This document shows positions 4,956-58,782 of a stretch of DNA of 60,600 nt, one piece after another; position 1 is the stretch's first letter, and each line of letters begins with the position of its first letter. A program made the translations under genes and the position numbers. The notes under the pieces are model-generated. The model searched no databases. It was not told where the DNA came from and saw only the letters and a program-made list of their open reading frames with translations. This DNA is from a virus (taxonomy: Duplodnaviria > Caudoviricetes): the IMG/VR virus record IMGVR_UViG_3300036791_000464, positions 1 through 60,600 of that record, one strand, 5' to 3'.

Positions 4956-5715
4956 TTCTGACCTCCTCGTATCCGTGGTGGGTGAAAGCGTGTCTGTCCC
5001 ATTTCCCGAAGCGACCGATGCGGACGACATTCGGGTGACAGGTACAGGTTGTTCGTAGCGGCTTGATGCCCTTGCTGACTCTGACCCCTTCCGCTAAGAC
5101 GCTTGTGCTGATATTCGTGGGTGCGTGATCCTCGGAGAACTCCCATGATTGGTACCCTCGGATTCGTGAGTAGCGATACCAAGCTGGCATCCCGACCAGA
5201 TCGACTCCGTTGTAAACCATAATGTTTTCTTCCACGGTGGTCGGCCCGTGTAGGACGACGATGTTGACGGCGTCGAACCGATGTTGCCAATCGAGGCAGA
5301 TCGAGCGCGCCGGGATCGCGCTGAAGACCATATCTGCCTTGATACCCTCGACGCTCTCAGGTGTTACCTGTACATCGACTATGAGTTTATTGTACTGTCG
5401 CCATAGCTTGGAGTAGGCCGACTTGAGATCCCATCCCGGCGTCGGCCCGATGGTGAACTTGTCCCAGCTGACTTCTGCGTTCGGATCCCCGTATACGCTT
5501 TCAGCATATCCCCAGCGTGTCCCGACCTTGTTGACGTCTATCATCATCTCGGGATTATCCGGGCTGATGTCCGGAATCGGTGCATGTAGATACATCGCGC
5601 CAAACGTGATGCTACGGCGCTTCCGAGAGTAGATGACGACATCATGTCCGACCGTCGCAGCCGAGTGTGCCGCGATTAGACCTGCAGGCCCACAACCAAG
5701 GATGGCTACCTTCAT
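4936..5715 (-). CDS. FAD/NAD-dependent oxidoreductase
   Basis: MKVAILGCGPAGLIAA Rossmann motif; C-terminal GRFGKW. Confidence 0.8.
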   Translation of the reverse strand: MKVAILGCGPAGLIAAHSAATVGHDVVIYSRKRRSITFGAMYLHAPIPDISPDNPEMMIDVNKVGTRWGYAESVYGDPNAEVSWDKFTIGPTPGWDLKSAYSKLWRQYNKLIVDVQVTPESVEGIKADMVFSAIPARSICLDWQHRFDAVNIVVLHGPTTVEENIMVYNGVDLVGMPAWYRYSRIRGYQSWEFSEDHAPTNISTSVLAEGVRVSKGIKPLRTTCTCHPNVVRIGRFGKWDRHAFTHHGYEEVRSALQQV

Positions 5716-6040: not shown

Positions 6041-8797
6041 CTACCAACGTACCTCACGGAGTAACCCGTGGAGTGTTGGTTCGACCATGATGTCTGCTCC
6101 ACCCTCTTTACGCACCATGCGTGCGTTGTAGAGCGTATTGATGATCGCGTTCGCTCGATCTCGATCAACATTGAGTACCTCTTCAAGATCCTGACGACGG
6201 AAGCGGCCGGTTTGGCGCAGTAGCTTCGCCAGATTACGCTGACTCAGCAGATATTCTCGGATCGACTCGCGTTGCTCTTCTGCCTCCTGCTTGTCTAGGA
6301 TCCGCTCGCGCGACCGTTCCGCGTAACCGAGCGTCGGCATATTGTAGATGACGTCGATGAACTTGACTGCGTCCTGTACGTGGATCGGCGTAACGACAAT
6401 CTTCTCATAGGTGTCGTCGGTCGAGAATGTACGCGCGGCGAGTGCTATGGCTATGCGCGCAATCTTGATGCGTGCGTTCGCAGCCTGGAGTAGTGGCGGA
6501 TCCTCTACATAACGGTCGCCTACCTTCATCGCGAGCTTGAAGACTGTCTCTTCCGCGTTGCGCGCCCATACGATCTGATCTAGGTGTCTCGTCCACACCC
6601 ACATCAGGAGCGTATGACACGCTTCGCTCGTGTACTTGAGTTCACCGGTATCTAGCAGCTTATTGTATTCCTCAGGTTTGACATCATACTTCGACAGGGC
6701 CATCGCGATATCGAAGCGCGCTATGTCTTCGGGATTCCCGATCAAAGGTTTGATTGCATCGACACCGTACGTGAACTGCTCCATTCCTCCGTCGCGCGGA
6801 TTCCCGAGCCAGAGTAGCCGTGTCCGGGCGAACGTGACCTCTTGTTGGATCTTCGTTATTCGGGCCAAGCCAGAAGCCCGCACGTCGGACATCTTAGCAA
6901 TCTCTTCCGGGTGGAGTCCTGATAGCTCATCAATAACAACCAACCTTCTGTCGTTGATTGGTATGACACCCCAAGTAACGGCCCAATCTCTTCCACCAAT
7001 CTGCTGCAGGCCTCCAACCAAGCCGGCAATAGTAGCTGCTTCTCCTCCGACGATTTCTCCTGCTCCATAATGTCGTACAAGTCGTTCAGCAGCCTCAGAC
7101 TTCCCTGTGCGAGTATCTCCAACGATGAGAGATTCGATCCATCCTCTGTGGACAACTTGACCCCCAAACTTGAACGAGAGCGGCGAGTGGAATGTTAGAT
7201 CCATGACTGCGTGCATTTCCGGGCGTCCGACGATCTTTGTAACGTGGCTCGCTAGCTCGCGCTCGATCTCGCCCAGCTTCTTGTATGGCCTTTGTCTACC
7301 GCGAACCTGGAACCGCTTCATGAGATTGCGAGCGTCATCGCTCATTTCGAAACGATCTACGCTCGTCTCCTGCTGCTTGACGTCCCAAGCGAGAAAGTCG
7401 TTGTGTTGGTCTCGCGGGTTCGGATAGAGAGCACCGGTGACTAGGACAGTCGTGTTCTGCATCGTATTGTAGCGACCGACCGACGTGATCTTGATGTTCT
7501 TGTAGTTACTCGCTTGTGTTCCGTCGGCGTGGTCGATACTCGGTCGAGCGTACAACTCTTCGACCGACTGGTGATCTTCGATCTCGATGTCGAGCTTACC
7601 ACATTTCTGCGCGCCGTACTCTAGCCGGATCATTTCGAAGATCTGAGCTTGCGATGAATCGATCATGCCGAGAATCTTCGGGCTAGTCGGCGGGATCTCT
7701 AGCGATGCCTCTCCGCCGCTGGTCGCGTTCATCGGACATATCTTACACTTCGGCCCGGCATCCTGCGTGCAGTGGAGCTTTGCCTTCCATGGGATCGTAT
7801 AGCCGGGATCGCGCTTACCCTTGATCGTTACCTGTAGCTTGACCGGATCTCCGACCTTGTGAGCGTCGAACGAGTCGAGCACCGTGACGATACTCGGGTC
7901 GTTGTTACGCTTCTTCAAAGGCTGGGCTTCGGCTAGCAGGCTTTCGAAGTCGGAGTTGTCGTGCTCGCGCCAGAAGTCGCTCAGATCCTTCCCATGTTTG
8001 TCCTCAATGGGATATGGAAGGGTAACGATCCGGACATCGGCTGTTCGACCGAGAGAGCGCGCGACCTTGTTCGCTCCGATCTGTCCGTCACGGTCGCAAT
8101 CCTGAGCGATAAATACAAGCTTATCCTTGAAGTGCGGGTTCCAGCGAGGGTACCATGTCTTGGCCCCGGAGGTACGGGTGATGGCGGCGTAGCCATGTTG
8201 GATGGTCGCGAGCGTATCCCACTCACCTTCGCAGATAATGATCCGGTCGGCCTCTAGCTGGTTCATCGGGTATAGCTCGGTCGTACGCATCCCCGTAACG
8301 CTGCGTATCTTCGTGTGCGCATCCTCTCTAGTCGTATAGCGCCGGACGTTCCAGATCTCTTGCTTGGGGCCGCGAATCGGGATCGTGTATACTTGTCTGA
8401 CTCGATCCCATCCGATTTCGAAGTCTACCATCGTCTTTGTATGGATACCCCGCTCCACCAGATAGTCGCAGACGGTTGGATCGTCGAGCAGAGCTTCGTG
8501 CCATCCTCGGATATGGCCCTCGGTGATGATCTCGTTCCCGACGGCCGTTTGCCGGGAAGCGCCGTTGTAGTTGACGCTTCCCGGCTCCAGCCAGTTGCTT
8601 TTCTGCGCAACCAGATCCGTGACTCTCCCTCCACCGCATCCGGCGAAGCAGTACCACTCGCCGGTCAGCGTGTTGAGCGACGCCGACCGATTCTCGTCCT
8701 CATGTAGCGGACAGAGCATGTCCCACTCGCCGTTCGAGCGGACACGTCCGAGTAGATACGGCTTGAGAAGCCGTAGGTGGCGAGCCGAGAGAGCCAT
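6041..8797 (-). CDS. DNA primase (CHC2 zinc finger + TOPRIM) fused to an MCM-like AAA+ helicase
   Basis: CPLHED...YCFAGC; ICEGEWD and DCD TOPRIM motifs; GDTRTGKS Walker A; VIDE Walker B; ARFD arginine finger. Confidence 0.85.
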   Translation of the reverse strand: MALSARHLRLLKPYLLGRVRSNGEWDMLCPLHEDENRSASLNTLTGEWYCFAGCGGGRVTDLVAQKSNWLEPGSVNYNGASRQTAVGNEIITEGHIRGWHEALLDDPTVCDYLVERGIHTKTMVDFEIGWDRVRQVYTIPIRGPKQEIWNVRRYTTREDAHTKIRSVTGMRTTELYPMNQLEADRIIICEGEWDTLATIQHGYAAITRTSGAKTWYPRWNPHFKDKLVFIAQDCDRDGQIGANKVARSLGRTADVRIVTLPYPIEDKHGKDLSDFWREHDNSDFESLLAEAQPLKKRNNDPSIVTVLDSFDAHKVGDPVKLQVTIKGKRDPGYTIPWKAKLHCTQDAGPKCKICPMNATSGGEASLEIPPTSPKILGMIDSSQAQIFEMIRLEYGAQKCGKLDIEIEDHQSVEELYARPSIDHADGTQASNYKNIKITSVGRYNTMQNTTVLVTGALYPNPRDQHNDFLAWDVKQQETSVDRFEMSDDARNLMKRFQVRGRQRPYKKLGEIERELASHVTKIVGRPEMHAVMDLTFHSPLSFKFGGQVVHRGWIESLIVGDTRTGKSEAAERLVRHYGAGEIVGGEAATIAGLVGGLQQIGGRDWAVTWGVIPINDRRLVVIDELSGLHPEEIAKMSDVRASGLARITKIQQEVTFARTRLLWLGNPRDGGMEQFTYGVDAIKPLIGNPEDIARFDIAMALSKYDVKPEEYNKLLDTGELKYTSEACHTLLMWVWTRHLDQIVWARNAEETVFKLAMKVGDRYVEDPPLLQAANARIKIARIAIALAARTFSTDDTYEKIVVTPIHVQDAVKFIDVIYNMPTLGYAERSRERILDKQEAEEQRESIREYLLSQRNLAKLLRQTGRFRRQDLEEVLNVDRDRANAIINTLYNARMVRKEGGADIMVEPTLHGLLREVRW

Positions 8798-13117: not shown

Positions 13118-14934
13118 TTCGCTACTTTCTTGAGGATCTGGCGTCGCAGATCGAGCACGTTCTTGTTGATGTCGATCTTCTCGTCGTTGACGTCCTTGAT
13201 GTACTGTTCTATCGTGCCTTTGCTCCGATAGACGAGGGCCGTCACTTGATGATTTCTCGTCGTATCGACCGCACGATCAGTTACCTGAGTCTGGTCATCG
13301 GGGTTCCAAGTCTCATCGAGTATGTGAACATCAGTCGCTCGATTCAACGTGATCCCGACACCGGCCGCAGCAGTCACCAAGACCGCTACACGAACCTTAC
13401 CGGCCTGGAAATCAGCCATGATTCGGTTGCGATCCTTCATGTGAACTGCACCGGAGATGATCTCGCACGGGATCCCGTAGTTGTTCAGATGCCGGTAGAT
13501 CATCTCTGCGGTCTCGCGGAACTGGCTGGCGATAATCGCTTGCTCATCGCCATCCGGATCCTCCGGATCAATCCCGCGCTCTTCAAGGTTCTCAAGCAAA
13601 TACGGGATCTTGCCAGACTCTTCGGTAGCCTTGACCTTCATCTCGACATGGCCAGTTTCCTCATCTACATTCAGAACCTCGACCGAGCACATGTGGTTCG
13701 CGAACTGCTTGAGCCGTGTGTACTCAGCTAAGATCGAGGTAGCAGAGAGATGGTATTCATCGATGCGAACCTCAGCCGCAGCAGCGAACGTATCATATTG
13801 CTTCCGCTGTTTCGTCGTCATGTCGCACCAGACATCGATCCACTGCGTCTCAGGTAGTTGCGGCAGGACTTCTGAACGAAGCCGCCGAACCGCATGAGGT
13901 GCTAGAGCCTGGTAGAACGCATCTTCGCGACCGGGGATGATATTGCCGATGCTCTTGTACTGTCCCCAGGTGTTCTCGATTACCAGCCACTGATAAGCCC
14001 AACGCCACTTCGACGTGAACTTCTCAGGTTCTAGCCAATTGAGAGCGCCCCAGAGCTTGATCGGCTTACCACCCATCGGTGTACCGCTCAGAGCGTACTT
14101 CCGTTGAGCCTTGATCGAGCGAGCTACCTTTGGAAACTCATTCTTCGGCTCGGGCAATCCCGTCTTGTGGAACTCGTCGATAGTGAAAGAGTTCCACAAC
14201 TTGATCTTCGGGAAGTTGCCCAGTCTGATCATATGCGCAGTAGTGACGAACCAGAACGGCTTGCCATCCTTGAGACAGCGTTCCACGGTACGTTCCGCTT
14301 CTGCTTTCTCACGTTGCGTCAAGTCGCCTGAGAACGTCACTACTGTGTGATCAGTCCATCGCTCGATCTCCATCCGCCAGACGCTGTCAAGCGTAGACTT
14401 CGGCGCGACGACCAGGTGAGGGCCAATCTCCAAGTCAGACTCGTAGAGTGACCCGATCACCTCAGTCGTCTTGCCTAGTCTCGGCTCCAACAGATTCAGA
14501 CAGCTGGTTGTCGCCATGAACTTCACGTCGGCCCGCTGGTAGGGACGGAACCACTTAGCAAGCTTGGGGAGCTTCTTGTAGAGCTTCATCTCCTTCAGTG
14601 GCGAGTCGTCTGCCACCGCCAGAGTCTTCAACTCTGTCTCCTTCTTCACTTGCCTCCGACCCCACGCCTTGATTGCGTCTCCGAGTTGGAGTCCGTCTCC
14701 GAACTCTTCACGAAGTCGCCTCATGACGATGAGGTCGAGTGGTAGCGTCCAGAGCGGCCCGCCGTTCTGTGCATTGACGAACCTGGCTCCGAGAGGCTTT
14801 AGCCTGTTCATCGCCAGTACATGCTCTTCACTGTACCGGAAATGGACTCCGCAGCGCTCACCGTCTTCTGTGAGTTCCACGAATGCATCCATGATGTTAC
14901 CTGCGACGGTTGGTTGATCGCCGGGCGGTCTCAT
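13114..14934 (-). CDS. SNF2-family helicase
   Basis: RPYQ Q-motif, EPRLGKT, IDEFH, LSGTP, GVGITL, WNP...Q; start uncertain. Confidence 0.9.
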   Translation of the reverse strand: MRPPGDQPTVAGNIMDAFVELTEDGERCGVHFRYSEEHVLAMNRLKPLGARFVNAQNGGPLWTLPLDLIVMRRLREEFGDGLQLGDAIKAWGRRQVKKETELKTLAVADDSPLKEMKLYKKLPKLAKWFRPYQRADVKFMATTSCLNLLEPRLGKTTEVIGSLYESDLEIGPHLVVAPKSTLDSVWRMEIERWTDHTVVTFSGDLTQREKAEAERTVERCLKDGKPFWFVTTAHMIRLGNFPKIKLWNSFTIDEFHKTGLPEPKNEFPKVARSIKAQRKYALSGTPMGGKPIKLWGALNWLEPEKFTSKWRWAYQWLVIENTWGQYKSIGNIIPGREDAFYQALAPHAVRRLRSEVLPQLPETQWIDVWCDMTTKQRKQYDTFAAAAEVRIDEYHLSATSILAEYTRLKQFANHMCSVEVLNVDEETGHVEMKVKATEESGKIPYLLENLEERGIDPEDPDGDEQAIIASQFRETAEMIYRHLNNYGIPCEIISGAVHMKDRNRIMADFQAGKVRVAVLVTAAAGVGITLNRATDVHILDETWNPDDQTQVTDRAVDTTRNHQVTALVYRSKGTIEQYIKDVNDEKIDINKNVLDLRRQILKKVAK

Positions 14935-15214
14935 TACTTTTGCTTCTCTTTCTGCCTCTGTAGATTGCGTAGACCTCACATCCTCGCGAGACGAACTCCC
15001 AGTCATGTTCTGGTTCTGGGATGAGCACCTGGCGACGATGCAAGTTGGACTGGAGCTTATACGCCTGTGCTGGATTCTCACAAGTGTAGATCAGCGCCCA
15101 GTTACCAGGATTGCCAACGAGTGGCATGAGCTGGTTGGCCCATCGCCCCACCAATCCTTGTTTCGGTCTCGGTGGCTCGTTGACGAACTCTACTTTTTGT
15201 TCTGTGTCGTTCAT
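14897..15214 (-). CDS. Hypothetical protein
   Basis: AAGGAGGGTACTA-ATG RBS. Confidence 0.65.
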   Translation of the reverse strand: MNDTEQKVEFVNEPPRPKQGLVGRWANQLMPLVGNPGNWALIYTCENPAQAYKLQSNLHRRQVLIPEPEHDWEFVSRGCEVYAIYRGRKRSKSNETARRSTNRRR

Positions 15215-15241
15215 TAGTACCCTCCTTATCTTGACGGCCAA

Positions 15242-15410
15242 AAGCACGCTCGGAGTTGAACCGAGAATACCCATCGTGCTTGGAAGATTCGGGGGATCCG
15301 GGGAGGGTACCAGTCCACCCGGATCCCCCACGCCGGCAGCGCGTTATCGACTAACGGCGCGCGCCAGCGAGCTTTGTAGGAGCTTGCGTAATGGGATGCA
15401 AGCCTCTATC
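15242..15410 (-). ncRNA. Structured intergenic RNA: hairpins, anti-RBS loop hairpin and tRNA-like minihelix
   Basis: 7-bp stem with a canonical T-arm (15242-15281); 12-bp stem at 15291-15329; further hairpins up to 15410. Confidence 0.55.
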
Positions 15411-15992
15411 CTAGCCGATCTCCTTCCGCGCCGGTACTCGACCAGTGCGGAAGCAATAGGGACAGCTTCGTCCGACAATCACAATCGGTTTGATCTGCTG
15501 CTGCTTTTGAACTCTGAATGGTCTCATCCATTCTCTCTCTGCGACCAAAAACGGACGGTCACCTGTCGTTCCTGGACAGTCTTTGTAGCCGCATCGGACG
15601 ATCAAGAAGCCGGGAAAGTCTTGGCTCCTGGTCGCCTGGTACCGAGGCAGCTTGCTTACGAAGTCGTTCAAGGTACCCTCCTTGGTTTGAAGCCCGGTAT
15701 GGACTCCGACCGCCCAGACGCTACTCTGGACGGCCGCAGTTCATCTGCCGGTACGTCTTGGATCGTTCAGACGGATGTCAGCGGCGGCCAACGTTCTGTA
15801 CCCGCCTGGGTCTGTGTACACCTGAACAAGAGACTTCTGACGACGCAGGATGTAACCGTTCTTGTCGAACGTACCTGCGGGTAGAAGTTGCTTGAAGGAG
15901 ACACATATGAATGGCCCGATCACAAATGGTTCGAGACCTTCCATCTTGACGACAACCCAGATCCGGCGACCAGGGCGCAGCATGTCTTCCAC
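15411..15992 (-). CDS. Two small hypothetical genes (15411-15671, Cys-containing; 15741-15992)
   Basis: ORF track; GGAGGGTACC RBS before the TTG at 15671. Confidence 0.55.
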
Positions 15993-16033
15993 TGGCCCAT
16001 GGTCGCCGGTCTTGGCTGCCTCTACGACCGCCG

Positions 16034-16534
16034 TCAGGAAGGGTTGTTGCCCCTACCTGCCTGGCGCTGAGCGCGCGTGCGTGAACGACGGGGCGTGGCC
16101 GCTGCGGTTGCCCGCTTGCCAGTGGTCGTCTTCGATCCTGCCGGACGACCACGACCGCGCCGGGGCGTCTCCTCCTCATCGCCGTTGTCCTTCTTGCTGC
16201 GGACTCCGGAGATGACCGAGTTGGCTGCCGCCTCCTCACCGCCGAAGAGATCCTTGACGGTGGCGACGGACTCGCCAACGCGAGCCGCGATCAGTTCCCA
16301 GCGGTTGCCATCGACGTTGCGGAGCTTCTTCACGCTCGCCGCCGTTGCCGGCTGCTCGCTGTAGATTCCCGCATCGACCTGGGCACGCGCCCAGGGCATC
16401 GCGCCGATGTTGCCGACGGTGACGCCCAACTCGCGCGCCGCCTCGGACTGACCCATCCCAGACTTGGCCAACCTCACGAGCTTCTCGTGGGTGACCGGCT
16501 GGGTGTTCTCGGTGTTACGCCTGTTGCGAGGCAT
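16034..16534 (-). CDS. Putative DNA-binding regulator (HTH plus AT-hook-like basic tail)
   Basis: GMGQSEAARELGVT HTH-like segment; RRGRGRP; own promoter. Confidence 0.65.
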   Translation of the reverse strand: MPRNRRNTENTQPVTHEKLVRLAKSGMGQSEAARELGVTVGNIGAMPWARAQVDAGIYSEQPATAASVKKLRNVDGNRWELIAARVGESVATVKDLFGGEEAAANSVISGVRSKKDNGDEEETPRRGRGRPAGSKTTTGKRATAAATPRRSRTRAQRQAGRGNNPS

Positions 16535-16575
16535 AATGCTCCCTCCTATTACGGTTGATGGTACCCAGTACGCCG

Positions 16576-16604
16576 ATTATAGCGCATGGGGTGGTACCCG
16601 TCTA
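16576..16604 (-). promoter_or_regulatory. SigA-type promoter
   Basis: TAGACG-17 nt-TATAAT, with GGTACC in the spacer and again downstream. Confidence 0.7.
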
Positions 16605-16685
16605 GTCATGATTACCAGGGACTTTTGACGGTGGAGTCGTAATGACCTCCGTGCCCCCAGCCTTTTACCGCTGGGGACGCGCGGG

Positions 16686-16976
16686 TCACCGCAACCTAAT
16701 GCACTTGAAGTTCGGCTTGATCTTCGCGTTCAAGTAGACGCCGCTCGATTCCGAATACGCGCATCTGACTGCGCGTTGCCGGCTGACACCGACGTAGACG
16801 TAACGAGCGCCGCCTTTGAACTCGATGAACATCAGCGGTTGGCCGCCCTTTTCTGGCCAGCCGATGAATCGAATATTCGAGCTATCAATCATCCGGATGA
16901 CGCAAGGAACTATTCCTTCAGGAGTGGGGATGTCCAGCAGCTGAGTTTTAGGCCATCCATCTTTATTGAGAGGCAT
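16686..16976 (-). CDS. KTSC-domain protein
   Basis: DSSNIRFIGW...IEFKGGARYVYVGV...SSGVYLNAKIK. Confidence 0.75.
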   Translation of the reverse strand: MPLNKDGWPKTQLLDIPTPEGIVPCVIRMIDSSNIRFIGWPEKGGQPLMFIEFKGGARYVYVGVSRQRAVRCAYSESSGVYLNAKIKPNFKCIRLR

Positions 16977-17388
16977 CTCTCTGCTCTCTGTCGAGTTTAT
17001 CGTGACAAGGTTTGCAGACTTCGATCCAGTCAGTCGGATCTTCCCACCTGTACTCAAGAGAGAGATTGTGAAACTCAGTTCCTCGTCTCACTCTAGTTCT
17101 GAGATTGGGCAGACGAACTACTCTCGATGGTGGTGTCTTACCACAGCGTTCACAAGTTCCCGTATATGGCTTCAAATCTCTGAGACGTTTATGTTTCAGA
17201 TCATATCCGGGATCAGGATTCCATCGTGGACTCTTTTCGCCTTTCTTGTTCCACATTCCGTTTCCATCACCCTTGTTCGCTTTGCTAATGGCAGCGCGAG
17301 TTTCTGGCGATTGTTCTTTGCCCTTATGAGCCTCGCTCATTTTGCGACGATGCTCATCAGAGAACTTCTTTCCTTTGGGCCATGGCAT
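16963..17388 (-). CDS. NUMOD3 HNH-like endonuclease
   Basis: Two NUMOD3-like repeats (SDEHRRKMSEAHKG; SPETRAAISKANKG); CERCG...EVCKPCH. Confidence 0.75.
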   Translation of the reverse strand: MPWPKGKKFSDEHRRKMSEAHKGKEQSPETRAAISKANKGDGNGMWNKKGEKSPRWNPDPGYDLKHKRLRDLKPYTGTCERCGKTPPSRVVRLPNLRTRVRRGTEFHNLSLEYRWEDPTDWIEVCKPCHDKLDREQRDASQ

Positions 17389-17930
17389 TACTGATCGCCT
17401 CTGCACACTGGCCCTATTCCTAGTTGGCGAGAAGTCTCGTCAGTCAAAGTCCTGCCGCAGACATAGCAGCGGCCGATCTCGCGCCCGAACCTGGGGCCAG
17501 CATCCGGATCCGCTTTGATCGCGTCCAGGACACGCTTGATCTCCGAGATGTTACCAATCGGGTAACGAGTATCGGATGCCCACACATCGACGAACACCTT
17601 GGAGTGTCCGTTCTTGACGCTGTAGAACATCAGCGTGCCGTCATCCTTCTCGACGGCATAGCGTCCGTCTTCAACGCCAGCGAGCGCGACATTCGTCTTC
17701 TTCTTCCACGGCAACGCCACCAGCGTCTCGATGACAGTGCTGGCGCGCATCTTCGGAATAGTTGCGAAGTCGGCGGTTTGGAGCCAGTTCTGCTGCTCCT
17801 CGGTGAGAGAGTCAAGATCCTTACCTTGAGCAAGAGCATCGAGGTAAGCGACCTGCTTCTCATTAGCCAACGGGCCGGTGGTGGGCCGGAACTGCTCCGG
17901 AACCTCCGACCTTTTGGTCGTTCTAGGCAT
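17388..17930 (-). CDS. DUF6011-like zinc-finger protein
   Basis: C-terminal RCYVCGRTLTDETSRQLGIGPVC. Confidence 0.7.
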   Translation of the reverse strand: MPRTTKRSEVPEQFRPTTGPLANEKQVAYLDALAQGKDLDSLTEEQQNWLQTADFATIPKMRASTVIETLVALPWKKKTNVALAGVEDGRYAVEKDDGTLMFYSVKNGHSKVFVDVWASDTRYPIGNISEIKRVLDAIKADPDAGPRFGREIGRCYVCGRTLTDETSRQLGIGPVCRGDQ

Positions 17931-17946
17931 GGTACCCTCCTTGACT

Positions 17947-20900
17947 GTGCTCGGTTATCCGAACACGAGGCCACCCGTCATTACACGGGTGACTTCCTGC
18001 TCAGTTGACCGGATCGACCTCAAGAATCTCGCGGTCGTCAGACCAATCGACATCCGTACCGTCGAAGTCTTCGAACTCCGCAGCATCTTTGGCGTCGTCT
18101 TCGTCTTCGGCATAGATGTAGATCGTGACTATGCCAGTGACCTGCATCTTGACTTTGTACTCTTGCTCGTCAGGCACGTTAGTCCCTTCCGAAGCCAAGA
18201 GGCAGATCCGCGCCCTCAGCTTCATCGATTGCTCTCTCAGTGTCGCCCCCAAGGAGCCGTTGCTGCTACGCCGACACTACTTGTTCAGCGACTTGCCACT
18301 GCTTCTTACACCCTTGCTCGGATTGACGCTGATGTTCGCTTTGGCGCCAGCCGAGCTTCCGGCCGTCCTGGCTCCCATGTCGATCTTCCGACTTGCGCGA
18401 ACAACCGTTCCGCCGCGAGTTGCTCCTGAGATCGGGAACTCTGCGTACATGAACTCGCGGTTGATCTTGACCTGATCACGCAGAGCGATCTCCAGACCGG
18501 AGCCAACCGACTTCACTGACTCGTTCCTCATAGCGTGCAACCGCTGTCCAACTTCGGCTGCGAATCCTGCCGAGAAGTTGCGCCTGAACGTCTTCCAGTG
18601 ATTGTAGTTCTGCGGGACACCGCGCACCTTGCACTCCTTGCGATAGTACCGCAGCATCGAGTCGCGAGCTTTCGTGCGCTCCATGTCTGTGTTGAACCCA
18701 GCGGCCTGCATCGCCTCGCCGGTCTCATCCCAGCCGATGCCAGCCTCGCGGAACAGCACGAGGTTATCGAACATCGACTTGAGTGGATCGGCTTTCGGAT
18801 GCGTAGACTCGACCAACTGAGTCATCAGCGACGAGAACAGCAGAGTCATGTAGCCGAGGTCAGCTTCGGTTCCAATAACCGGAACCTTACAGCTTTCCCA
18901 TGTTCTACGAGTATGACTGTAGTGCTGCTTGTGGATGACGATGACGCAGTTCGCGTGCCGAGCCACATCTAGGAACAGAGACCAAAGTGCGTCGCTGATC
19001 TCCGGGAATGGCCCGGACTCAAACGCGAAGCTGTAGTCGAAGTCGTGGATGATTGGCGTCCGCCCGTCAATACGACCGGCATCGTGCTGCGCCAACTCCC
19101 AAAGCTCGACATTGTACTTCATCATCAACTCGTCGGCCTTGGCCATGAAGACTGCGCGCTCACCTTCGAACTCGGTGCTCTCAGCCTTGGCCAAGAGTCC
19201 CTGGATCTTGGAGAGCAGGTCGTCTTTCTGGATCGTGCTCATCTGGTACCCTCCTTTTGGGGTAAGACACTATGTACCATACATAATGTCTGGGCCACCC
19301 GGTGGTGTTCCGGGTGACCGAGGCATTACACCTGGCCAAGCTCCCAGATCGTCACAGGATTGTGACAGGCAGGAGCATTGTGATACGACATCAGATCCAT
19401 GCCTTCCCAGATCAGTCCGTAGGCGATGCCGCCGTTGAACTGATTGTTATACTGGACGATCTTCACGCACCGCATCGAGTGCGGATTGCCCGGCTCATCC
19501 CAGCCGTCATCTGCAATAACTTGATCGACGACCTCGCGACTATTGACGGTAGTCATTACGTCCTCTCGTTCAGGATACCATTTTCGATCAGAAATGTCTT
19601 GTAGATCGGGAAGACGTTATTGTATGTCTTCTTCCCAATCTCGACATTGTGTTTCTTCAGGATCACGACAGCCTGCTTCAGCGGTGACAACCGCCAGCGT
19701 GGGCCATCCGGGTGCTCGACTATCATCTTCATCTTGAAGTAGACCTGAAGATAGACGAACGCTCTGATCTCATGAGGCTGGTCGAGGATGAACCCTTCGC
19801 CACTCATGACTCATACTCCTGTAGTTTGACGACGAGTGCATCGTGCTTCTCGGCTAGGTACAGCAGAGCCGAGCGTACATCTTGCAACGCTCCAAGGATG
19901 ATCTCAGCCTCGTCCCAGTTCAGACTTGAGCTAGGACTCTCGGCCATATCCGAGATCGAGCCGATCACGCCATCAAGGTTATTGATGTCGCTTACGACCG
20001 ACGCAGGAATGTTCCGGATGGTGAACTCTTCATCCTCTCCATTCATGTGCTCATCGCTCCGTGCTCGTCGATCCCACCGATGATAGGATTGCCAGTCGTG
20101 TACTTGATCTGTACGGACATATAACCTTCCGGCAGACCAAGACCGCCTCTCTGGACGATGATCTCCTCGACCGAATGACCCTCAGACAGATCGACAAGCT
20201 TACGCGCTTGCGCCATCGTAAGGTGGTCGAGTGCTTGTGGCGTCATTTTGATGACGACCATACGGTACCCTCCTTTTGGTTTAGAGCCTACACCACGCAG
20301 ACTCCGACCGTCTCTCCATGAGAGACGGCCGCAACCTAGTTGGTGTCCTTCTTCCATGCTCGGTCGCTTGCGCGCTTCTGGGAACGCCTGGCGGCTTTCT
20401 CAGCCTTGCGCATAGACGACTTGAGGTTGCCTGAGCCATGCAGGATGAACTTACCGCGCTTCATCGAAGCGGCTCGCATTCAGGGCAGAACTCACGATGG
20501 GCATCGTCGTGCAGCCCTTGCATGTGAGCATCCGCCATGTCTGCGATCTCGTCGTCCATGTTTCTTGCACTTGGGACGATCTCTGTTGAGCCGAAGTGGT
20601 GCTCATAGCTGCCGGCTTGGGCATGAATGAACACACCAGGCTTCCAGCCCATCCGCTCGCACTTTCGCTTCATTGCTGCGACACTGTCATCGAACTGCTC
20701 GACGGTGCCACCGACCATGACGAATCCGACGTACTTGTCGCCGTTTCCCCAAGTGTCTGTGATGCCGAACGTCGAGGCCATCGGCCTCTTGGCGATCCTC
20801 ATCTTCCAGGGTTTCCGAGCTTCGCTGCTGATGCAGGCGACAACCTCGGTATCCGGATTGGGATCGATTTGAACGCGGTTACTCATTGGGTACCCTCCTT

Positions 20901-23900
20901 TCGTACATGTTCGGATCACCCGAACACGAGGCCCCACCCAGTGGATGGGACTTCCTGCTCAGCTGATGACCTTGCTGTTGTTGGAGAGAGCGATATTGAA
21001 GAGCGGAACGAACTTGTACTTTTCCACCGGGCTGGCGACGATCCAGACCATCTTCTTCTTGGTGCTGGTGCCGTCCTTATGGTGGATTTGGCTCATCTTC
21101 TCTTGCTTCTCAAGCTTGAGCTGGACGCCATCGATCTCGATGGTCTTCTTGCCGGCCAACCAGGCTGAGCGGATCAACTCAACTGAAGACTTATCAGTCG
21201 CCATCAGTCAACCTTCTTCGACCAATTGCTGTTGTCGTCGTTCTCGGGCTCATACTTGTGGAGCATCGCTTCGATCTCTGCGACTACTCCCTCATGGAAC
21301 GCGGTCTCATAGACATCGAGCAGATGCGGCTCGCCATCGTCGCCGTAGCGGTCGAGTTCTTCCATGCAGACTTGTTCCCAAGTGGGATCGTCTGCCCATT
21401 CGCCGCTGACTCGCGGCATCGGAAGCATGTCCATGATCTCAGGATCGATGTTCTCCATACCTTCCATGATTCTCTTGAGGAACTCGTACGGATTGTCCGT
21501 ATTCCCATCGACCATCCAGGTTGCGGCGTTTTTGCCGTCCTGCTCACCGCGCTCGGCGATGATCGCGTCGTCTTTGTCCTCGGACGTGTCTGCGATCCTG
21601 CCTGACAACTCTTCGTGATGCTGATGGTACGCAAAGAGGAGATGCTGGTGAAGAATCGAGATGTCCGAGATGCTGGCGAAGTGCAAGAAGTTCTGTACAG
21701 CAACGCCAACTTCCTTCGATGAGACAATAAAGCTGCCGGCATCGTGGTCGATTGCGTGAACAACTCGGCCATCATCCATGACTTCTTCGCTGTAGATTGC
21801 GAAGACCTTCATTGGTACCCTCCTTTGTTCGGCCGTGCTTGGCTTATCCGAGCACGAGGCCCAGCGCGCGATGCTTTGCGTGCTGGACTTCCTACTCAGC
21901 TAGTCCGCGTCGAACTTAGTAATGTAGAGTTGCTTCTTGATTCCGAAGAACTCCATCATCTCTGCCGGAGCGCGCTTGGCGTACAGTTGGCGCTTCGTCC
22001 AGATTGTATAGCCGGTGCCGAAGCCGGACGGCATGAAGTTGTACGGCTGTCCGCTCAGCAACGTCTTGCTCACCTTTGTTCTTGTCTCTGGCGTTACCGA
22101 GAACGGAATGCCCGGAACAGAAGTTGAGACAGCGATGCGCTTCAGTGACTCTGGAATCCGCTCCGTGATGTAGCGGTGGATCGCTTCGTTGGCTTCGTCA
22201 CTTGGACTCACGTACGGCTTCGGTGTGAACTTCAACGGATTGCTGATGTAGAAGCTGTCATCGACGCCGTAGCGGTCGTATGAGCGACGGATCTTGTCCG
22301 GGGCCATGAAGCTAACATGACCATCGGCCAAGAAGTAGTCGTTGCGATCACCGGAGAAGTTGATCTCGATAATCGTCCAAGGAGCTTTCATCTGGGTGAG
22401 GTACAAGCTTTTGAACTTCTTCTTTGTCCAATCGTTGACCTCTTCCCTGACTTCACTTACAAAGCCCTTTGGAACCACGATTTCACGGATCAACGTATCC
22501 GGCTTCGGAACAACCGGCTTGATGTTCTTAGCCGTCATTCCGTCACCTGGTCGGCCGTGACCCAGAGTTGACCTTTGCCGACGCCGAGCGTTGTGTACTG
22601 CCGGTAGCCGCGCCAATGTCGCGCGCAGCCATTCGCCCACGGGCCCATACTCGTTTTGAAGTCGTACGGGCCAGGAACGAACTCGTCATCTTCCATCTGG
22701 CAGAAGTTGCAGTTGGGAATGCGATCGACAAGAATGACCTGATGGGGGATGAGCTTGAGCTTAGTCATGCTAGTCCACCACCCATCCGTCATCGAGAAGA
22801 GCATCGACGTTGTCGTACGTCTTCAGCTTGCCACCACCAGGCAGTTCGCCAAAGATCGTCGAGTTGCTCTGGATGGTCAACTCTGCGTTCTCATCGATCA
22901 TCTGCATCCCAGCCGCTAGCACTGCCGTCTCGATGCCTACGTCTTGCGACTTAGCGCGACGCTTGATCGGGAGCAGCAGATGCGGCCACCTGTATGGATC
23001 GAGGATCATCTCACGATGCTCCTCGCGTGTATGACCTGTCCAATCCTTTGGACTCGTCATTTTGGTACCCTCCTTTTGGTTTTGTACTAGGATCTCCTTT
23101 TGGACTGATGTCCGGCATGGGACAGTGATGTTCTGTCCCTGCCGCGCATCAGTGTGACAAGAAGAACAAGATTGCGTCGATGACCTCGCGCGCTTCACCG
23201 ATGTTGTCGCTGTTGATGATCGCCATCCTGGGATTGCTTTTGCCATCCAAGATCGGCTTGTCCCAGTTGAAGACGTTGTGGTTCCGCTGGAAGTGGAACT
23301 CCATCGTCAGTTGAGATGTGTATGGCGTTGACTCTTGCTCGATGAAGTGGATAACGCCGCAGTTGCTGGCGCTCCATTCCGCGACCAACTCGTAATCCAA
23401 GCTGTTGGCGGATGACTCCAGATCCTCTATGAACTTCTGCTGGAATGTTTTCATTGGGTACCCTCCTTGTTTTCATGCACCATGTACCCAAGCTTATCTC
23501 GGGCACAAGGCCGCTCGCCGTGTTGCTTGTTGGTGAGCGACCTTCTGCTCGCTACGCCTGCTTGGCGGCTTGGAGCATCGCAACACCGAGCGAACCAAGG
23601 TTGCTCGTTGTGCGGATCTTGACCACGATCTTCTTCTTGGTCATTGCGGTACCCTCCTTGGGGTTTGTTCTATGCGTACTCGGTTGAGCACGAGACCGCA
23701 TCCCGTGTTGCTGGTGGGATGCGATTTCCTACTCAGTTGCCTGTTTGTTCCTTTGATTCGCGCAGAATGACGATTCCCTTCTGCCTTGCTGCGTGGCGCT
23801 CGTTGGCGAACTCGTCGTTGATGAACGCCAACTTCTCCCAGACGTTGACGACACTACCCTCTAGTGCCTTGAGGGCATTGGCGACGACGCAAGCGAGGTA

Positions 23901-24396
23901 CAACTTGTTCTCCAACTCGATGGCGATGCCGGCTGCGTCCGCGATGGCGTCGTCCAAAGTCTTGTTCTCTGGCTTGGGGTCGAAGCGCAGCGTCTCCTTG
24001 TTGTAGCCAAGTTGAGCATTCCATTCCTTGGCCACTTCGGGGTAGTCGCCATCCTCTTCGTAGATCCCATCGGACTCGCCGCCCCAATCCATTCCGAGGT
24101 CAGCAGCGACCCACATAGCCGCGACGAGTGGGATGTTCTTGTAGCCGTAGGCCGTTGGGAACCATCCCATCTCTTCGTTGAACCGCTCGGTCTCTTCCTT
24201 GGTTTTGACCTCGCGGCCATCGCCAATGAACTCGACCTTGGACAATGTGTCCAAGCAGCGGTTGACGAAGGACATCGCTTCGCTATTGAAGTCGTATCTC
24301 ATTTCGGTACCCTCCTTTGGGTTTTGCTTTTGTTTCCGTACCGATTGGCACGAGGCCATCGAGCGTAATGCTTTTTGCTCGATGACTTCCTACCAT
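17947..24396 (-). repeat. Repeated intergenic tandem-hairpin element (6 copies)
   Basis: GYAGGAAGTC-hairpin-GGCCTC-GTGY..hairpin at about 17947, 20907, 21835, 23483, 23676 and 24338. Confidence 0.85.
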
Positions 24397-25707
24397 CAGC
24401 GGCGGATTGTGAATCCGATGATCGTCGCGAACACAATCGGGATTGTGGAAACAATCGCGATTGCTGACTGATTGACTGTTGCGCTCGCTGCTGCGTTGAG
24501 CATGATGAGCGCGAGTCCGATGAGCGCGAGTCCGATGAGGACGAGCCCGATGCTTCTCGTTTGGGCGGTCATCGCTTGGCCGTTCTTCTCGCCTTGAGAT
24601 CGGCGTAGAACTTCGCATCGGATTCTGTCTTGATGCGCTTGATCTCCTTGCGCGCTTCCTTGATCTTTCGCAGCGTTTGGCGGTAGTTCGTGATGACTTC
24701 GTTGGCCATGTTCTCATGGAGCCAGCCAAGGCCGTTGCCGTCGTTGGCCTCTTCCTTGGCCTTGATGAACTCCTCGATGCGGTTCTTGATGACCGTCTCG
24801 ATTTGGATCAGATCCAAAGCGTCGAGGACAAGTTCGGTTTCGATGTACTCTGATTGTGCCACGGGTTGGTACCCTCCTTGTGGTTTGGTCGGGGTATCCG
24901 ACCGGCGCGGGATGCGCTACTCGCTCACATCCCCGCCGCTCGAAAGCCGTCCATGTTCCGAACACTTCTTGCCGGTTATCGCCGTTCTCGGACATCTGTT
25001 GCCTCCCTTGATAATCGTTACAAGGTAGGACGTGTTGTCCTTCCGCTTCTTGCGGAATGTGATCTTCTTGCCGTTCGAGATGTGGTCGCATTGGCGAAGC
25101 GGGAAGGTGTTTGGTGATTTTGCCTTCCGCCCAAGTCCGCGCGTCTCAAACTCGGATAGTCCCGAGTTGCGGAAATGGTTTCTTGCCATTTCCTTGTTTC
25201 GACGACGTTGTTCTCTCGTCTTATGATCCATTGCTGTTTCCCTTCCCTTTGGGCGGGCGGGGTTATCCTCGCCTCATCTAGCGTCGTCGCGGTTGGAACG
25301 TTGGACGGCGCTCGATGAGGCGACGGGGTTTGTCTTCCCCGCCGCCCCGCCGTAAGGAGGGGGTACCATTATATAGTTATCAAGCTACGATGGGGATTTG
25401 CGATTGCCCCGTTCTCATTCCTACCGTTGCCCCGGAGAGCTTGCCGATTTCTCTACTCGGTACCGTCCGCCGACGCTAGTTCGGGGGATCGGTCTCTACG
25501 GGCGTGGACGCGACGGGCGAACCATTGAGGATACTCTCCCGGACTCTTGTCTATATCCTTGAGGATTTCTCTATTAGGATCGCCCAAATGCCGCCGTCCC
25601 TCAAGTTGTTGCCTCGCAGCCATACCGGTTACCATCTCCTCGATTCGCTCGTCCGTATCGCGCGCCCGCCGGATCGCTCTCGCGACCCGGCCTCCGCTTT
25701 GTCCCAT
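18001..25707 (-). other. Early-region array of small hypothetical genes (e.g. 19326-19556, 19556-19807, 19804-20046, 20043-20261, 20461-20886, 20959-21204, 21204-21812, 21900-22538, 22535-22768, 22770-23060, 23149-23454, 23733-24302, 24569-24862, 24917-25231, 25453-25707)
   Basis: Co-oriented, tightly packed ORFs, many preceded by AAGGAGGGTACC. Confidence 0.75.
18277..19242 (-). CDS. DUF2786-domain protein
   Basis: N-terminal LLSKIQGLLAKAEST...KADELMMKY. Confidence 0.75.
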   Translation of the reverse strand: MSTIQKDDLLSKIQGLLAKAESTEFEGERAVFMAKADELMMKYNVELWELAQHDAGRIDGRTPIIHDFDYSFAFESGPFPEISDALWSLFLDVARHANCVIVIHKQHYSHTRRTWESCKVPVIGTEADLGYMTLLFSSLMTQLVESTHPKADPLKSMFDNLVLFREAGIGWDETGEAMQAAGFNTDMERTKARDSMLRYYRKECKVRGVPQNYNHWKTFRRNFSAGFAAEVGQRLHAMRNESVKSVGSGLEIALRDQVKINREFMYAEFPISGATRGGTVVRASRKIDMGARTAGSSAGAKANISVNPSKGVRSSGKSLNK

Positions 25708-57849: not shown

Positions 57850-58782
57850 TTATCCTCCGATCCGGTGATGTTCTGAACGGAATGTTCGGTTGCTCTCGCG
57901 AGCCCAGGGGAACGGGCATTGCCCCTCGACCGACTCCCATCCTTGGAACGTACAAGTATGAGCGGTAGACTCATGCTGGTGAATGGAATGATCCATATCT
58001 AGAGCACCGTGCGTTTTCTCGCAGCTGATCTTGATGTACGGCTCCAGGAATGGGTAGCGATCCACCAGAAGCTCGCGAGCCATTCTCATGACCGTAACGA
58101 TCTCCCACTGGAACATCGAGCAGCCCCGGTAGGCGTACACATTGATGAACTCCCGGAGCGGGTACTCCATCATGATGTAGTTCGTCGTGCCTTCCGGGAG
58201 AATGTAGCGAGCGTCTTGGTACGACACATCCGCATTGCAAGCTGCGACGTACGCTCTGCGGCAAGCCTCGATAGCCTGCGTCCAGAGACCACGTACATCG
58301 TCGCCCTGAGCCCAGACCGACTCCGGCATCCGCTGCTCAGGCCCGGAGCCGTAGTAGCTCGCCCGCATCGACTGCTGGTGGAACGCAGCTTTGCGGGTTC
58401 GGACGATCTGATGAGTACATGCTCTTGAAACTCCCGACACCTCAAAAACTACAACCTGACTTTCAAGAGCAGTTTGCAATCCTCCTCTCAACATCTCTTC
58501 CCAATCGCGGCTATCATCATCGGGGCCAATAAGCTCGATGCCGATAGTCGCTCGCGTTGCCTTCGACAACACCTTTTCGAACTCAGGGTTCAGGCCTTGG
58601 ACGAGTTTGACGGTGATTCCGTCGTCGCCTATCTGGACGATGTCGTTGTCGTAAGGCGATACGTGATGGCCGTCATTTATGCTGTGACGGTTGAACGCCA
58701 CATCACGGAGCAGCTCAGTTTCGCGCTGATCCACCCAGTCACGTGATCCGACATACTGCTTGGGTACGCGAGGCTTATACAC
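57850..58782 (-). CDS. thyX: Flavin-dependent thymidylate synthase (divergent)
   Basis: ALE..FEVSGVSRACTHQIVRTR...QQSMR, DARYILP, QWEI. Confidence 0.85.
   Translation of the reverse strand: MYKPRVPKQYVGSRDWVDQRETELLRDVAFNRHSINDGHHVSPYDNDIVQIGDDGITVKLVQGLNPEFEKVLSKATRATIGIELIGPDDDSRDWEEMLRGGLQTALESQVVVFEVSGVSRACTHQIVRTRKAAFHQQSMRASYYGSGPEQRMPESVWAQGDDVRGLWTQAIEACRRAYVAACNADVSYQDARYILPEGTTNYIMMEYPLREFINVYAYRGCSMFQWEIVTVMRMARELLVDRYPFLEPYIKISCEKTHGALDMDHSIHQHESTAHTCTFQGWESVEGQCPFPWARESNRTFRSEHHRIGG

Follow-up and report, generated by a model that had tools for sequence, protein, structure and literature searches.

A hairpin loop complementary to a shared early-gene ribosome-binding motif co-varies with that motif in uncultivated viruses and in Cluster K1 mycobacteriophages

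The stretch of DNA analysed here, referred to as the window, is the complete 60.6-kb virus record IMGVR_UViG_3300036791_000464 (Duplodnaviria; Caudoviricetes), with direct terminal repeats at its ends. On its minus strand, at positions 15291-15329, lies a hairpin whose loop is the exact complement of a ribosome-binding site (RBS) motif heading about a dozen early genes, and loop and motif change together across seven motif classes, in uncultivated relatives and in Cluster K1 mycobacteriophages. The observation is real and, as counts in relatives confirm, far beyond chance. The original prediction, made from sequence alone, held that the loop is antisense to the shared early-gene RBS, that one small RNA could thereby shut off a whole set of early genes, and that this would explain why the RBS spacer is invariant; the complementarity and its tracking of the motif in relatives have stood, while the explanation of the spacer has not. 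The reading put forward here, with even confidence, is that a hairpin in sense-strand RNA binds these private RBSs by base pairing and thereby lowers translation of the genes they head.

The hairpin has the perfect 12-bp stem originally described, with arms GGGGGATCCGGG (15291-15302) and CCCGGATCCCCC (15318-15329) enclosing a loop of 15 nucleotides (nt), GAGGGTACCAGTCCA (15303-15317). Read on the minus strand, the loop is UGGACUGGUACCCUC, so that its 3′ portion complements the motif exactly; this loop core, GGUACCCUCC (15302-15311, minus strand), complements the RBS motif GGAGGGUACC, and its site is the window's single plus-strand copy of that 10-mer, against 11 copies on the minus strand. Only the GGAG part gives the motif an orientation, since GGTACC is palindromic. 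Taken alone, the hairpin is only moderately unusual in its stability (z = -2.4, with 5 of 200 shuffles folding equally well), and the case for more than chance therefore rests on relatives.

The motif itself is strongly enriched and tied to translation starts. The 11 minus-strand copies of the exact 10-mer GGAGGGTACC (15672-24877) each stand just before a start codon. With both strands counted, there are 14 copies of the 9-mer GAGGGTACC where shuffles lead one to expect 0.18, and 0 of 100 shuffles yield as many as 14; matches to GGAGGGTACC with at most one mismatch number 18 on both strands against 2.3 expected. All 13 minus-strand copies of GAGGGTAC that head an open reading frame (ORF) of at least 30 amino acids (aa) are followed a few bases on by ATG, GTG or TTG. 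These comprise 11 exact copies and two with one mismatch (at 15216 and 5151), head ORFs of 30-321 aa, and all fall on the minus strand, from 4.9 to 24.9 kb, outside the plus-strand structural block. The full RBS consensus is AAGGAGGGTACC.

Relatives were taken as 60 loci of uncultivated viruses retrieved by an SNF2 helicase search, giving 61 sequences with the window. All 13 loci with the GGAGGGTAC motif hold the antisense GTACCCTCC just upstream of the helicase module, namely the window, L002-L010 (67-84% helicase identity) and L031-L033 (43-45%); a further locus, L036, has the 9-mer at another place with zero sense copies, which is taken as a chance occurrence. The loop core is invariant as GTACCCTCC in 11 of 11 aligned sequences, and the flanking arms vary. 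In an alignment fitted to a covariance model built on four hairpins, from which 10 of 19 rows (reverse-strand, weak matches) were removed before pairs were counted, 108 of 108 cells of the stem pair and 8 of 12 pairs have changed on both sides among nine distinct hairpins of class A, the window's motif class. A plain MAFFT alignment of 11 hairpins led RNAalifold to pair the arms wrongly, since neither loops nor stems are of uniform length. The loop is divided in its constraint: the 5′ half is free in sequence and length (15-22 nt) and the 3′ half is fixed, with GGTACCCTC invariant.

The same arrangement recurs with other motifs. In class A the motif GGAGGGTACC is matched by the hairpin complement GGTACCCTCC. 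Five further uncultivated lineages with the same helicase family, classes A′ and B-E, each have a hairpin bearing the exact complement of their own motif: GGAGGGTACA with TGTACCCTCC in class A′ (loop ..UUGUACCCUCC), one base off class A on each side; CCAGGGAGG (AACCAGGGAGG) with CCTCCCTGG in class B (loop ..UCCUCCCUGG..); AAGGAGCCA with TGGCTCCTT in class C (loop ..UGGCUCCUU..); GGAGGGTCA with TGACCCTCC in class D (loop ..UGACCCUCC); and AGGAGCTACC with GGTAGCTCCT in class E (loop ..GGUAGCUCCU). The seventh pair, from the K1 mycobacteriophage Adephagia, joins the motif GGGATAGGAG to the hairpin complement CCTCCTATCC.

Whole records give the same result when the motif is defined without reference to the hairpin, as the most frequent 10-mer of each record. 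An antisense copy is present in 12 of 13 whole records with a repeated private motif, where about 0.09 copies per strand are expected by chance; G013 and G014, without a clearly repeated RBS motif, stand outside these counts, and G010, which holds L005, was searched with the class-B motif only, its hairpin being known from that locus. A single antisense copy accompanies 11 sense copies in G000, 15 in G001, 11 in G002, 13 in G003, 8 in G004, 4 in G005, 10 in G006, 10 in G007, 11 in G008, 12 in G009 and 6 in G015; G011 has 7 sense and 2 antisense copies, one in the hairpin and one outside it. An unbiased scan for 9-mers in hairpins with stems of at least 9 bp was too noisy overall: among 3217 hairpins, 112 had at least five antisense partners versus 113 in the same-sense control, the list being dominated by GC-rich coding repeats of mycobacteriophages, and anti-RBS hairpins topped it for the uncultivated records.

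Motifs of this kind are already known from mycobacteriophages. The accessible text of Pope et al. 2011 (PMC3203893) describes 13-bp start-associated sequences (SAS), GGGATAGGAGCCC, in Cluster K and notes a single inverted SAS in Cluster K1 without explaining it. The right arm of Adephagia, when up to two mismatches are allowed, holds 16 SAS copies on the plus strand and one on the minus strand. This inverted copy proves to be the 10-nt loop, CCUCCUAUCC, of a long hairpin (z = -5.7 to -6.7; about 58,660-58,715 of the record). Genes 92 and 93 are separated here by 430 nt of non-coding sequence, the gap in which late transcription reportedly starts. The region is conserved in 144 Mycobacterium phage records; by eye, Anaya, Validus, Amelie and Peanam retain the loop on a stem altered by wobble and compensatory changes. 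A second hairpin, of 17 bp, GGCCCCGGCGCUCC..GGAGUGUUGGGGCC, lies immediately 5′ of the anti-SAS one at L099:33615-33651 (about 58614-58650 of the Adephagia record) and is preceded by a block, GCACAnCTGTnCCCAAAAC, that is conserved in nine Cluster K phages and lies in the same late-transcription-start gap.

Predicted folding and pairing energies are consistent with an RNA read from the gene-sense strand. All six hairpins of classes A′, B, C, D and E are more stable by 6-15 kcal/mol when folded as the sense strand, which has 2-4 G.U pairs where the antisense strand has none. Predicted loop-RBS duplexes range from -17 to -22 kcal/mol, those with a generic 16S tail from -9 to -14 kcal/mol, and the loop of the same class is the best predicted partner in 6 of 7 columns. 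Each of 12 RBS regions can form 9-12 contiguous Watson-Crick pairs with the window loop, at a mean predicted duplex energy of -22.2 kcal/mol.

These features suggest how the element could act. The hairpin would be a structured element of the gene-sense, minus-strand RNA, and its loop would present 10-12 nt of private anti-RBS sequence, matched to the extended Shine-Dalgarno (SD) sequence AAGGAGGGUACC that heads about a dozen early genes. Lying downstream of 11 of 12 sense copies, at the border between early orphan and replication genes, it would be made after most of them; across records of classes A, A′ (G009), B and K1, the sense copies preceding the hairpin number 11/12, 14/15, 10/11, 13/14, 12/13, 9/10, 8/10 and 15/15. 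The loop would pair with early-gene RBSs in trans or inside a long early transcript and compete with the 30S subunit, turning down translation of the whole set, with the phage's own RBS extension serving as the address. The structure, its conservation and the joint change of loop and motif are shown here; that such an RNA accumulates, pairs with its targets in the cell and represses them is inference.

Two further structures flank the hairpin. A tRNA-like minihelix (15242-15281, minus strand) lies 10 nt 3′ of the hairpin and comprises an acceptor-like stem and a T-arm, GGTTCRAYTCC, with the loop GGTTCAACTCC. It also occurs at L002:3657-3704, L003:3664-3712, L004:3646-3692, L005:3643-3692 and L006:462-510, and 7 of its 11 pairs show changes on both sides among these six class-A sequences; it is absent from L008, L009 and L031-L033. 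ARAGORN found 0 tRNA or tmRNA genes in the window and 15 loci, the structure there being an acceptor and T-arm minihelix only. Such a minihelix is a minimal substrate of RNase P, the enzyme that matures the C4 RNA of phage P1. The adjoining minihelix suggests that the hairpin may be cut out as a stable fragment, and strong stem and minihelix together could yield a processed RNA that outlives the mRNAs. Directly 5′ of the anti-RBS hairpin, the minimum-free-energy (MFE) fold places another hairpin (15331-15369, minus strand), which varies in sequence in relatives but is present in them.

Several observations weigh against a regulon-wide antisense RNA. In class A and K1 both strands fold about equally well, so that energy gives no preference of strand, and over all hairpins the sense strand is the more stable in only 12 of 20. 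The anti-motif is partly paired within the loop in the class B and E folds, and the class C hairpin is weak (z = -1.6). The position rule fails in class D, with 4 copies upstream and 3 downstream, and in class E, with 2 upstream and 5 downstream. One hairpin facing about 12 targets would need to accumulate, and the search of sequencing runs listed no RNA run with the window sequence, only one DNA run, from which the window may itself derive. The same co-variation with the motif would be expected of an inverted site in double-stranded DNA. Among the mycobacteriophages, Pixie and ShedlockHolmes retain the hairpin with a loop lacking anti-SAS, and the loop carries a one-base deletion in Ekdilam and is degenerate in Shandong1, both with standard SAS. 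Finally, the hairpin is dispensable for such motifs, because two phages have such a motif without an antisense copy: the Microbacterium phage AnnaSerena, whose SAS is given as GGGAAAGGACCCC in the accessible text of PMC7302621, shows 9 sense copies and no antisense copy over the 46.7 kb examined of its 56.7 kb, and G012 has 20 sense copies of GGAGGGTCA and zero antisense 9-mers in the whole record.

Near 65474 in G012 (L080, that is G012:46000-65999, gene-sense strand), a tandem ACCCTCCACCCTCC, twice the complement of GGAGGGT, is followed by a small hairpin and sits upstream of one block of motif-bearing genes; it may be a different layout of the same idea. The motifs of Pixie, ShedlockHolmes, Ekdilam, Shandong1, AnnaSerena and G012 are just as invariant as those of the other phages, and the proposal that the hairpin accounts for the invariant RBS spacer fails on this point: since invariant private motifs occur without it, the hairpin is not the sole reason for their invariance.

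An unlikely alternative is that the element is a structural RNA signal (a terminator lacking a U-tract, a stabiliser of a 3′ or 5′ end, or a processing site where two transcription units meet) or an inverted DNA copy of a site for a phage protein that reads the motif, its complementarity to the motif being unused for RNA-RNA pairing. The hairpin does stand at a module border, which in Adephagia is the gap of the reported late-transcription start, and the stem evidently has a role of its own because Pixie and ShedlockHolmes hold it without the anti-motif. An orientation-independent DNA site would co-vary with the sense copies equally, and Pope et al. 2011 (PMC3203893), in the text accessible, left both protein and RNA possible as the reader of SAS. 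A structural role alone, however, leaves unexplained an invariant 10-nt loop core that tracks the motif over seven classes, including the single-base change between A and A′, and a DNA site needs no covarying arms, some of them paired through G.U on the sense strand only. The features of an intrinsic terminator are present only in part: the stem is GC-rich, but the loop is 15 nt long and the tail, GAAUCUUCC, has no U-tract, and a terminator scan did not include the 15291-15329 hairpin in its list. Rfam (cmscan of 14800-16000, E up to 10) returned chance-level matches only, with no family at gathering score and no C4.

Rather less probable is a local element acting only in cis, in which the loop would form a pseudoknot with the RBS at 15216-15225 and tune or couple translation of the helicase module, with no regulon-wide role. 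The numbers would then match, one hairpin to one target, and five of 12 records (G000, G003, G009, G005 and G011) do have a sense RBS copy at 51-89 nt downstream from the loop. In the window this nearest sense copy is the one-mismatch GGAGGGTACT (15216-15225, minus strand) before the 105-aa gene 15214-14897, 85 nt downstream of the loop core. In the other 7 of 12 records, however, the next sense copy is at least 1 kb off or there is none, and L004, L008 and L009, three of the 11 aligned class-A/A′ sequences, have lost the motif at the adjacent RBS, which reads GGAGGGGTAG, GGAGTGGGGT and GGAGGAGGT, under a loop that has stayed the same. In the MFE fold predicted for the intergenic RNA, loop and cis RBS are not paired with each other. 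Because the adjacent RBS drifts under an unchanged loop and the nearest sense copy is often distant, the cis action on the RBS near 15216 that had been suggested at first is unlikely, on its own, to be the whole story. Chance or hitch-hiking is very improbable: the palindromic GGTACC, with 35 sites per strand in the window, means that a reverse match takes just four more bases, a second plus-strand GAGGGTACC does occur at 8146 within a coding region, and the hairpin alone reaches only the modest z-score given above, but the motifs of classes B, C, D, E and K1 are non-palindromic and show the same pattern, and 12 of 13 whole records far exceed the expected antisense count.

Three further candidates for the hairpin were rejected. 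The possibility that it forms the 5′ end of a 144-aa maximal ORF (14897-15331) is ruled out by loop lengths that differ by non-multiples of three and by a stem that covaries; a plus-strand gene started by the loop motif is ruled out by the lack of a start codon within 12 nt here and in L002 and L008, judged by eye; and a YUNR U-turn in the loop is ruled out as not conserved in the alignment, read by eye.

The genes around the hairpin all lie on the minus strand, in a block running from position 1 to about 25.5 kb that encodes a DnaE-type polymerase, a primase-helicase, a PD-(D/E)XK nuclease, the SNF2 helicase and many small orphans; the plus-strand block from about 26 kb holds the structural genes, with portal, capsid and baseplate. 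The exact motif copies, all on the minus strand, and the genes that they head are as follows: 15672-15681 (gene 15671-15411, 86 aa, TTG start), 17931-17940 (17930-17388, 180 aa, DUF6011), 19245-19254 (19242-18277, 321 aa, DUF2786, with the longest loop match at 12 nt), 20264-20273 (20261-20043, 72 aa), 20889-20898 (20886-20461, 141 aa), 21814-21823 (21812-21204, 202 aa), 23064-23073 (23060-22770, 96 aa), 23457-23466 (23454-23149, 101 aa), 23648-23657 (a short ORF, 23644-23552, 30 aa), 24306-24315 (24302-23733, 189 aa) and 24868-24877 (24862-24569, 97 aa, GTG start). An outlying one-mismatch copy, CGAGGGTACC (5151-5160, minus strand), precedes the 79-aa gene 5146-4907. In a PHROGs scan of 12 motif-bearing proteins, 10 had no family match and 2 fell in families of unknown function. 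No integrase was found among 14 window ORFs scanned, and megablast of window positions 14000-17000 against GenBank phages returned no match.

Other repeats and elements accompany these genes. A repeated intergenic element, GGAAGTC-hairpin-GGCCTCGTG, occurs on the minus strand at 17964-17997, 20925-20955, 21853-21892 and 24349-24390, 25-45 nt upstream of four RBS-motif copies (4 found against 0.11 expected), and looser variants stand ahead of the motif copies at 23657 and 23466; the element is reminiscent of the 'extended SAS' of Cluster K. The second plus-strand copy of GAGGGTACC (8146-8154), in which C replaces the first G of the 10-mer, is directly followed by ATG and lies within the minus-strand primase-helicase ORF 6041-8797. 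The ORF 16963-17406 (minus strand), amid the early genes, carries NUMOD3 motifs, a DNA-binding module of homing-endonuclease type. Near the divergent early/late junction, a GC-rich hairpin at 25314-25351 (minus strand) scores weakly against the hairpin model (19.4 bits, E = 0.4) and has no anti-RBS loop.

SAS have been catalogued in actinophages since 2011, and a paper from 2024 still describes their role as unknown. The inverted copy, so far unexplained, is here placed in the loop of a conserved hairpin, and six unrelated private motifs are seen to follow the same logic of pairing. The accessible text of a 2025 survey of 188 Cluster K genomes (PMC12699233) gives the function of SAS as still unverified and does not contain the words 'hairpin', 'antisense' or 'opposite orientation'; a literature search, in the texts accessible and outside the supplementary site lists, which possibly show other inverted sites, returned no paper tying the inverted SAS to a hairpin or RNA. 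The link between inverted SAS copy and hairpin loop, and its recurrence with six other motifs, thus appears to be undescribed. The question can now be put to experiment in a tractable laboratory system, Adephagia grown on M. smegmatis, with public RNA-seq at hand (early at 30 min, late at 210 min, and lysogen; PMC11373665). Should the proposed action hold, an RBS extension private to the phage would serve as the address of a translational switch for a whole regulon, and such pairs would be natural orthogonal SD/anti-SD pairs of use in synthetic biology. A bolder and distinctly doubtful extension is that the hairpin is the missing trans-factor of SAS and that a lineage-private SD extension with its anti-RBS RNA forms a programmable regulon switch, possibly acting between phages. 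Because loop and motif diverge jointly, even by single bases (A versus A′), as in the C4 RNAs of P1 and P7, the pair could act between phages; a resident or earlier phage would then silence the early genes of a relative with the same motif, and escape from silencing would drive motif diversity.

Among known elements, intrinsic terminators and hairpins that stabilise 3′ ends likewise place a GC-rich perfect stem between gene blocks; unlike terminators, the window hairpin has a conserved 15-nt loop and no U-tract after it. In phage T4, the nuclease RegB and the repressor RegA are proteins that shut off early mRNAs at their SD regions. The likeness is that of a phage-wide post-transcriptional switch at the SD regions of early messages; the difference is that the T4 effectors are proteins, whereas the effector proposed for the window would be an RNA loop and its address a private SD extension.

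In the targets, the likeness is to the SAS of Cluster K (PMC3203893) and of Cluster EF Microbacterium phages (PMC7302621), described in the accessible text as invariant, asymmetric motifs of 10-13 nt with an SD core, present in 10-19 copies. Like the window's copies, they stand a few bases before the starts of non-structural genes in a single orientation, and the papers, in the same accessible text, give no known function for them and do not tie the inverted copy to a hairpin or RNA. The window has at least 10 copies with an SD core, near starts and in one orientation in non-structural genes, and in Adephagia and four other K1-type phages the inverted copy lies in a hairpin loop, as in the window. 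The sequences GGGATAGGAGCCC and GGAGGGTACC are unrelated, as are the phages, and because its motif differs from the Cluster K sequence the window's system is an analogue of SAS and not a member.

In the effector, the element resembles C4. This phage antisense RNA and its target come from one strand and one operon; the loops of C4 bind where the target overlaps an RBS, paired changes on the two sides, RNA and target, make it specific from one relative to the next, and it is matured by RNase P. C4 and the window hairpin both display a loop complementary to an RBS-overlapping target, with matched loop and target changes among relatives, and RNase P maturation of C4 recalls the tRNA-like minihelix adjoining the window hairpin. 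In P1 and P7 this RNA controls one operon, icd and ant, whereas the window motif heads a dozen dispersed genes. Neither in sequence nor by Rfam model does the window hairpin match C4 (Citron and Schuster 1990, cited in PMC8198154). By these likenesses, the element would work as a C4-type antisense RNA from outside that family, and would be of SAS type by analogy only.
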